DNA of 62,709 nt, counting the filler, from Stramenopiles sp. TOSAG23-6 (lineage: Eukaryota), in the NCBI GenBank assembly GCA_900128565.1. It is 17 parts of 17 records of this genome, joined end to end, with 100 filler letters (N's around TTAATTAATTAA, not from the genome) between each part and the next. Parts side by side here need not be neighbours in the genome. Positions count along the whole stretch, not along the records: positions 37,067 to 40,652 come from LT637447.1; 16 more parts are not named here. One strand, written 5' to 3'. The first letter of the stretch is position 1, and each line of letters starts with the position of its first letter. The notes under the pieces were generated by a model, which made no database searches, was not told where the DNA came from, and saw only the letters and a program-made list of their open reading frames with translations. Below are positions 39,379-40,543 of this stretch, one piece after another. The translations under genes were made by a program, and so were the position numbers.

Positions 39379-40543
39379 ATGGTAACATCATTAAGTTTAC
39401 TCATTGATGCTGGTAAAGAAGTTTCGGAAATTGGCACTTCACCTGAAACAAGTTACTTGGATAATGTTTACCGCGCTAGCTCAGAGTTCTTTGAAATGTT
39501 ATTACTTCTCAATAGCTGCCCAGAGTGGCACAAACATACGTGTCTTCAAAATCGTCGCTGTGTAATTAGTGTATATTTAATGGTAGATGATCTCGTTCGT
39601 CCTATTCTCCAACCGTGTGATCTAAGCCTGACAAATGTTCACAAATTACGAGAAACTTTTTCTCGTCTTTCTCCTGCGATAGAAAAAGAAAACGATAATA
39701 CTATACACAATATTCAAAGATCCGATAGTATTTGCAATGAAAAATTTACCCATGCATTTTCAAAGGTATCAACAGCAGTAAATAATGCATTACGTATATC
39801 TAAATCAATAGGAAATGTAGTCGATACAAGCACAATCTATGTAATTACTCGATATTCCAGACAAAAAAAATCACTTGAAAAAATCTGCAAAGACGTATTA
39901 TTGAAATTTTCTAGAGCTGAATTTCTCATCGTTGGAAAAGGAGATATAGAAGAAAATTCTCACTTTACTACTGAAAGTACAAAATTAATACGAAAGTATC
40001 CGTCAATAACAATGAAACTCTTACCATCACCAATTTTATTACAGACTGCGTGTACGTTATTTTTTTCAATTTCGAATTTATTTTTTTTTCGTACGAAAAT
40101 TTGTACCTAACGAACTTTTTTTGCAATATTTTTTCGCAATACGTGTACGTTTTTTTTTCGTCCGTGTATTTCGTGTGGTTTGGTATATAATTTTATTTTT
40201 GAATTTCATCAATTATACGAAATTCTACATCAAAGCTAATGAATTTCGAATTTGATATAATCTTTCAAAATTACATACAAAAGTTGGCTTTGCTTTTTCG
40301 CACCTAGTTCAACAACTACAATTTGTTTTCCAGAAAATAACACGAATTCCCGAAATTCCAAAACATCTGAAAATATTTTAAATATAAAAGTTGATATTGG
40401 AATTTCTGTTGTAAATACAAGTAATTTACTTTGTGGTATAAGAGGATCTAAATCTATACCACTTCATACAAATAGTCCAACTGTTATCGCTGTCATACCT
40501 ATAGAAAAAGTGAGCGTTTCTCTTTTATATGGAGTATCAAATC
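39379..40543 (+). CDS. Unknown protein, partial; exons 39379-40051 and 40277-40543
   Basis: Two open frames join in phase (T|AC) after removal of abutting introns 40052-40144 and 40145-40276. Confidence 0.6.

Follow-up and report, generated by a model that had tools for sequence, protein, structure and literature searches.

In a 62.7-kb stretch of DNA from Stramenopiles sp. TOSAG23-6 (62,709 nucleotides (nt), filler included, from assembly GCA_900128565.1; hereafter the window), an orphan gene on the plus strand carries two introns back to back, with no exon nucleotide between them. Both belong to a family of short repeated introns, most copies of which end in AT rather than AG. With moderate confidence, we propose that a later copy of the family came to lie precisely at the 5' edge of an older copy, leaving a zero-length exon between the two, and that the pair is probably removed in two reactions.

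The gene can be followed through two exons. Exon 1 (39379–40051, +) begins with an ATG at 39379 and is an open frame ending ...act gcg t. It is followed by unit 1 (40052–40144, +), a complete family intron of 93 nt, GTACGT...CAATACGT, with the donor GTACGT at 40052–40057, the family core TTTCGTACGAAA at 40087–40098, the branch motif GTACCTAAC at 40103–40111 and the end CAATACGT at 40144. Unit 2 (40145–40276, +) starts at the very next base. It is a degenerate, composite family intron of 132 nt, GTACGT...AATTACAT, with its own donor GTACGT at 40145–40150, a branch-like GCTAAT at 40235–40240 and the end AATTACAT at 40276. Exon 2 (40277–40543, +; ac aaa agt ...) is an open frame of about 89 codons in DNA of 31% G+C, and next to it lies a third family intron (40544–40652, +), recognized by its motifs, which begins GTATGT, carries GTACCTAAC at 40626 and is truncated by the contig end. 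Exons 1 and 2 are in one frame, and gcg t|ac aaa is the only in-frame join with family-type ends. Units 1 and 2 together measure 225 nt (75 codons), with in-frame stops in each, which means that neither can be retained. The first-pass annotation had claimed two abutting introns at these positions, each starting with GTACGT, an in-frame join with nothing between them and a branch-like GCTAAT in the second; its coordinates, donors, ends and frame all hold.

At the junction the DNA reads CAATACGT|GTACGTTTT, that is, ATACGT|GTACGT, a 3' splice site followed directly by a 5' splice site within the removed stretch, which is the arrangement of a recursive splice site. A family-like 3' tetramer followed by a GT donor-like hexamer occurs at 51 sites in the window; by eye, only one of them has an intron on both sides. 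The 10-nt sequence CGTGTACGTT is found exactly twice in the window, 93 nt apart and once per donor: at 40049–40058 (+), where it consists of the exon's CGT and the donor GTACGTT, and at 40142–40151 (+), across the zero-length-exon junction. With one mismatch allowed there are four matches against 1.67 expected, and only the exact pair is notable. A direct repeat at both donors had also been pointed out before. The two exact copies stand, but their weight as evidence is reduced: GTACGTT is the 5' end of both units and ACGT the 3' end of their subfamily, so the repeat is a weaker sign of target-site duplication than it first appears. Seven of its letters (GTACGTT) are the common family 5' end, and the extra coincidence amounts to just the final CGT of the exon.

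The site lies inside one contig of the window (37067–40652) and crosses no join. Independent coverage was judged from Logan contigs of two DNA runs: X1, probably from the source sample, and X3, a seawater metagenome from another study and year. Both carry the tandem. Record 7 of X1 matches 40084–40546 with 0 differences, and record 14 of X3 matches 40085–40452 with one difference and no gap. Both cross 40144/40145, X3 as independent material, and the abutment therefore exists in nature. Exon 1 is transcribed: the RNA run X6 holds a polyA contig at 39317–39510, together with many unplaced family copies. Six population differences fall in exon 1, five of them at third codon positions and four synonymous.

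The family to which the two units belong is abundant. GTACCTAAC occurs 47 times in the 62.7 kb where 0.10 are expected, and TTTCGTACGAAA 31 times in the window where 0.37 are expected; when duplicated contigs are collapsed, we count 33 unique motif sites. Four Pfam-supported genes contain family copies, with 16 of 17 motifs on the coding strand. Copies are found in EFHC-like, SKIV2L-like, TMEM260-like, kinase and orphan genes, and about 1,200–1,400 contigs of X1 and X3 match the family core. The consensus is GTAYGT, a T-rich segment, TTTCGTACGAAATTTTGTACCTAAC, a second T-rich segment and CAAAATACAT; the 5' site consensus is GTAnGTTTT, and GTACCTAAC lies 30–57 nt ahead of the 3' end. The usual flanks are AT|GTA... 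on the 5' side and ...AT|G on the 3' side. Many similar copies thus serve as introns of unrelated genes, and protein colinearity indicates that they are removed precisely, with the host protein unchanged. Judged by sequence, the family is one of short, sense-oriented, transposon-like introns comparable to introners. A scan with a 22-nt core matched one contig of a metagenome collection (L001), which holds a single ordinary AT|GT...AT|G copy, and 0 viral contigs and 0 prokaryote genome contigs. We found no published description of this intron family or of such tandems in the literature, supplementary tables being outside the search. The main text of the MAST single-cell genome paper uses 'intron' twice and 'splic' never (PMC5778133).

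The 3' splice rule was derived from an EFHC-like gene (52141–54868, -) with nine family introns, which served as the reference. Its coding sequence (CDS; 54868–52141, minus strand) was built by cutting at GT and at the family 3' motif. The resulting protein is colinear with its best relative, P0001, across 505 residues, 258 of them identical; the source of P0001 is a 2,334-nt contig that is transcript-like in appearance. None of the four gaps in the alignment touches a junction (9/9 ungapped), and the junction-spanning residues L, C, V and S are the same in P0001. Cut in this way, eight of the nine introns end in AT and one in AG. Single introns permit some shift of the border (0, +1 or +2 for intron 2; -1 or 0 for intron 6), but only GT...AT suits introns 2 and 6 jointly, which resolves the ambiguity. 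We also considered an AT-AC reading, with both borders moved 2 nt leftward, and rejected it: it gives no single rule for introns 2 and 6, and it alters the conserved junction residues V (EFHC intron 6) and I-S (TMEM260). At least 150 relatives of the EFHC-like protein were retrieved by a HMMER library search; exon 1 of the EFHC-like gene had no match in the 'longer' homologue search at E<=1e-10. In the SKIV2L-like gene, cutting the family intron at GT...AT yields DRDL|PQV, which we take to be a conserved helicase motif.

Across the 20 unique copies for which both ends are available, the last dinucleotide is AT in 16, AG in two and GT in two, and the borders of 11 copies are backed by homology in the form of protein colinearity. 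Examples of introns with AT, GT or AG ends lie at 52141–54868 (-), 31256–31359 (+) and 16245–16338 (-). A crude open-frame test, which three copies (c3093, c3358 and c12753) passed, proved too permissive to fix borders. U12-type introns have the 5' site RTATCCTT and the branch motif TCCTTAAC about 10–26 nt from the 3' end. The family has GTAYGT at the 5' site and its branch motif 30–57 nt from the 3' end, and we rejected a U12-type assignment. There are likenesses nonetheless: U12-type introns include those with GT-AT, AT-AA and AT-AT termini (PMC1557818), and the GT...AT ends of the family, an AT...AA intron in a collagen-like gene of the window and a long conserved branch motif ending in TAAC are shared with them. 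That collagen-like intron (37913–38075, -), ATATGT...TTTTACCTAAC...CATTATAA, is needed with its AT...AA ends to keep the Gly-X-Y register (GPQ|GPR); the GT...AT alternative breaks the register over three triplets.

The copy nearest to unit 1 is c16280 (16245–16338, -), an ordinary single intron of the TMEM260-like gene, which like unit 1 runs GTACGT...CAATACGT. Its border at GTACGT...CTCAATACGT| gives a WG-GF spacing equal to that of 12/12 relatives, and moving the border 3 nt up- or downstream gains or loses one residue. From the branch motif to the 3' end there are 36 nt in c16280 and 34 nt in unit 1. The shared ACGT| end, the fit to the spacing of the relatives and the closeness to unit 1 together mark ACGT| as a subfamily trait and a usable 3' site. 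A public CDS, P0156, which is 100% identical to the TMEM260-like gene, skips a conserved exon piece and reads through the family intron; since it translates through 16245–16338, the public model of this gene is wrong there. A separate observation links this locus with unit 2. The sequence CGTGTGGTTT in unit 2 (40172–40181, +) equals 16238–16247 (-), which comprises the last three intron bases of c16280 and the first seven exon bases after it, and it has just these two loci in the window. It might be a flank carried along with a copy, or chance.

The two units differ in how well they preserve the family sequence. Unit 1 is 82% identical to its best match, c16280, with a median identity of 68%, on par with ordinary copies; it contains an internal tandem duplication of 13 nt (40116–40141). 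For unit 2 the best identity is 65% and the median 58%, and its branch motif is degenerate. Most of unit 2 is made up by unit 2b (40183–40276, +), an old copy of 94 nt, GTATAT...ACAT, recognized by its inverted ends and family identity. It is at best 68% identical to the family, and 68% identical to unit 1; its inverted repeat (40179–40194 and 40267–40282) is 88% complementary. The 38 nt ahead of it (40145–40182, +), which contain CGTGTGGTTT, begin with the family donor and may be a GTACGT-type remnant. Rather than a single old intron, unit 2 seems to be an old copy of 94 nt preceded by a 38-nt remnant. A reading in which unit 2b alone is the old intron and 40145–40182 is exonic was rejected because the inner GTATAT donor breaks the frame (93 + 94 nt). 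The earlier suggestion of a young intron at the donor of an older, degenerate one is supported by the identities of the two units, with the amendment that the older one is composite. On this history, unit 2 would be the older resident, itself an old 94-nt copy with a 38-nt remnant, and unit 1 would have come later, precisely at the exon/intron border. In the simplest course of events, family copies would have arrived at this exon border again and again, and the older layers would have been partly deleted.

Could the tandem instead have arisen from local duplication, or from unequal recombination between family introns, with CGTGTACGTT marking the recombination points? The 10-nt direct repeat does stand at the start of both units, and a repeat search extends it to 35 nt at 77%. 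Internal tandem duplications are also common in the family, as in the 13 nt of unit 1 and where the core is joined to itself in X1 and X3. However, the units are only distantly alike: unit 1 finds its best match in a copy from another gene (82%), and unit 2b matches unit 1 at 68%. A recent duplication would have left near-identical units, and an old one would not have kept unit 1 near the consensus. We consider such an origin improbable.

Both units carry a complete set of signals, that of unit 1 being of proven type, so two reactions are expected. The spliceosome would take out units 1 and 2 separately, in either order. Removal of unit 1 would restore the original exon|GTACGT donor and make the junction a natural zero-length-exon, or recursive, site. 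Recursive two-step splicing at 40144|40145 is plausible, given the signals in the DNA. Recursive sites known so far break up introns of great length, and their sequence is (Y)nCAG|GTAAGT. Those of Drosophila and of long vertebrate introns share with the tandem a 3' site followed at once by a 5' site, so that splicing regenerates a donor (PMC5126111). Unlike them, the site here lies where two mobile introns of about 100 nt abut; it would be an apparent by-product of insertion.

The competing view is that the 225 nt form a single composite intron, spliced from the donor at 40052 to 40276 via the downstream GCTAAT, with the internal sites as silent relics. One-step removal gives the same messenger RNA, so selection would be blind to the route. 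Moreover, EFHC introns 3 and 5 (181 and 182 nt) each contain a pair of branch motifs but lack internal splice sites, which implies that long composite units are excised whole. What speaks against a single step is the quality of the internal signals. Unit 1 has a full-strength branch motif and the type of 3' end that is used 36 nt past the branch in c16280, where the spliceosome should stop, and the internal donor GTACGTTTT matches that of the family perfectly. We therefore regard one-step removal as rather unlikely and favor removal in two reactions. Introns with two branch motifs, such as EFHC 3 and 5, could be an end state of tandems after deletion of the internal junction.

The ends of the family introns bear on how copies move. 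The inverted ends ATGTAT and ATACAT are complementary in 83% of cells, compared with 9–57% for slid registers. Compensatory changes in the end pairing number 0, equal to shuffles, and RNAalifold predicts no pairs for the family. The border GT|GTACGT at the tandem is similar to the usual family flank AT|GTA; with ...AT|G on the other side of most copies, the exon/intron border at the tandem resembles a preferred site. Copies could have arrived either by DNA transposition that makes a short duplication or by reverse splicing into the 5' splice site. The same data touch on whether the elements are spliceosomal at all. Removal by DNA elimination, or by a structure-guided RNA cut like that of the non-conventional introns of euglenids, would accommodate the non-AG 3' ends, the complementarity of the ends and the frequent short direct repeats at the flanks. 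Yet a GTAYGT donor, a branch motif like that of yeast, signals in this order and at this spacing, and 16/17 motifs in sense orientation fit the spliceosome; the pairing of the ends lacks compensatory changes and RNAalifold finds no structure; and the window has the standard genetic code and normal genes. We give a non-spliceosomal route next to no credence.

Several points weigh against the proposal of a later copy on an older one with removal in two reactions. On the DNA side, the X1 and X3 contigs both break at 40084–40088, within the repeated core, so it is the window's own assembly that ties exon 1, with the 5' half of unit 1, to the DNA downstream. The left join might then be a chimera of assembly or amplification in the core, in which case exon 1 with that half of unit 1 would come from a different locus and the junction, though real, would belong to another gene. 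It is true that no X1 or X3 contig bridges 40084–40088, that over a thousand contigs contain the core and that the assembly has duplicated contigs. Set against this, the frames agree across the core (a one in three chance), the depth is similar on either side of the break (13.2 vs 11.8 in X1; 5.9 vs 4.7 in X3), and three sense-oriented family introns follow one another on the plus strand. A chimera seems very doubtful to us.

The other adverse points concern the transcript, the gene, the borders and the insertion. X6, the sole RNA run, has no read or contig over the introns or the exon-exon joins here. The four variants in exon 2, all from one low-depth X3 contig, are all non-synonymous. For the exons of the plus-strand gene a Pfam search gave no family and a homologue search at near lengths found none, so its exon borders are set by the reading frame and the family rule only. 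Among the other copies, the motif-defined borders of c14291, c178 and c7034, where there was no homology check, failed the open-frame test, and the results of that test leave out c40974, most EFHC copies, L001 and unit 1 itself. Younger and older were judged by identity to only about 20 copies. Finally, in 20 introns examined for target-site duplication, the flanks match at -2 in 15 and at -1 in 16, where 13.7 and 14.6 are expected (p about 0.2); as this is not significant, insertion in the manner of a DNA transposon is undemonstrated.

Comparison with other systems likens the family to introners. Those of Micromonas, Aureococcus, dinoflagellates and many marine protists are likewise near-identical, short, AT-rich sense introns in unrelated genes, with their own splice signals, inverted-repeat-like ends and marine protist hosts (PMC9860276, PMC12130899). 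The family departs from them in its 3' ends, mostly AT, some GT and rarely AG. One introner survey assessed target duplications around GY/AG splice sites (PMC9860276); in another, the familiar 3' ends are AG and AC only, and families with mainly unfamiliar ends were dropped unless supported by transcripts (PMC12130899). The words 'tandem' and 'nested' are absent from the available text of both papers, and 'adjacent' from that of the second (PMC9860276, PMC12130899). The introner elements of Amoebophrya also have non-GT-AG borders, terminal inverted repeats and short direct repeats across the borders (PMC7789003). They show no consistent terminal dinucleotides or branch motif, whereas the family has a strong GTAYGT and TACCTAAC, and only its last dinucleotide is odd (PMC7789003).

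Stwintrons, including the [D1,2] type and the 'sister' stwintrons of Hypoxylaceae, consist of two U2-type introns that are spliced consecutively, and they share with the tandem a complex two-intron unit tied to intron duplication at donor sites (PMC9024468, PMC8469720). In a stwintron the inner intron interrupts the donor of the outer one, whereas here the introns abut and the second donor is intact in the DNA. A [D1,2] parse of the tandem was rejected: GTACGT at 40145 is intact, and there is no intron starting with GT between G1 and T2 of the donor.

Rather than being a single locus, the window chains together contigs of about 3.6–3.7 kb in decreasing size, each join being 44 N, TTAATTAATTAA and 44 N. 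Four identical 3,703-nt contigs follow one another at 14770–29681, and two near-identical EFHC contigs at 51800–59041, so the underlying assembly holds redundant contigs. The DNA is AT-rich (20–38% G+C) and gene-dense, as in a compact eukaryote. Its Pfam families include TNFR-type cysteine repeats, an SKIV2L/MTR4-like helicase, a TMEM260-like mannosyltransferase, a kinase, SPX, UCH-L5, an EFHC/Rib72-like protein with three DM10 domains and a collagen-like protein. An Rfam search of the window gave 0 matches, and snRNA (small nuclear RNA) genes were not found in it. For part of the TMEM260-like gene there is a public protein that is 100% identical, with the source label eukprot:GSMAST32...; the next-best named matches are mostly from oomycetes, with other stramenopiles in addition. 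Label and matches together make an uncultured stramenopile of marine origin the most likely source. The stretch is also present in seawater metagenomes of another study.

A few unusual elements were seen along the way. At 53688–53868 (-), 53150–53331 (-) and also 32440–32620 lie unusual introns: some family introns have double branch motifs and no internal splice sites, and in one intron the palindromic core TTTCGTACGAAA has an inverted copy and a direct copy around it. Several family introns contain short telomere-like repeats, TTAGGG/CCCTAA, where other copies carry CAATTTCGAATTT; examples are at 53040–53060 (-), 3520–3540 (+), 200–230 (-), 1770–1790 (-) and 55060 (-). Just beyond the end of an EF-hand open reading frame, at about 60264–60337 (-), a 32-nt unit with the start GTATATGTTTAC and an AG end is duplicated head to tail. 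This could be another place where two mini-introns abut, or the unit may simply have been duplicated.

Bursts of intron gain are at present best explained by mobile introns, whose choice of site and supply of splice sites are not yet settled. A copy on an older copy's donor offers a natural experiment on 5' splice sites as targets and on insertion as a source of zero-length exons. More speculatively, the tandem at 40052–40276 would catch such a process with three layers stacked on a single exon border, and copies may land preferentially on the 5' borders of residents, for example by reverse splicing into the 5' splice site or through a preference for NT|GTA targets. More broadly, and tentatively, we suggest an AG-independent spliceosome in this organism that excises thousands of mobile copies at GT...AT (also GT...GT, and AT...AA elsewhere), with the 3' site set by the roughly 10-nt CAAAATACAT; copies that prefer resident 5' borders would build recursive arrays, and these would in turn become introns with two branch motifs. 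This wider picture is possible but falls well short of probable. Taken as one locus the tandem is a moderate curiosity; more importance attaches to the family and its AT and GT ends. Genes of this kind are mis-modeled by standard gene callers, as P0156 exemplifies. If RNA confirms the splice rule, the family would, as far as known, be unusual for the large number of its introns that lack AG and yet have textbook donor and branch signals.
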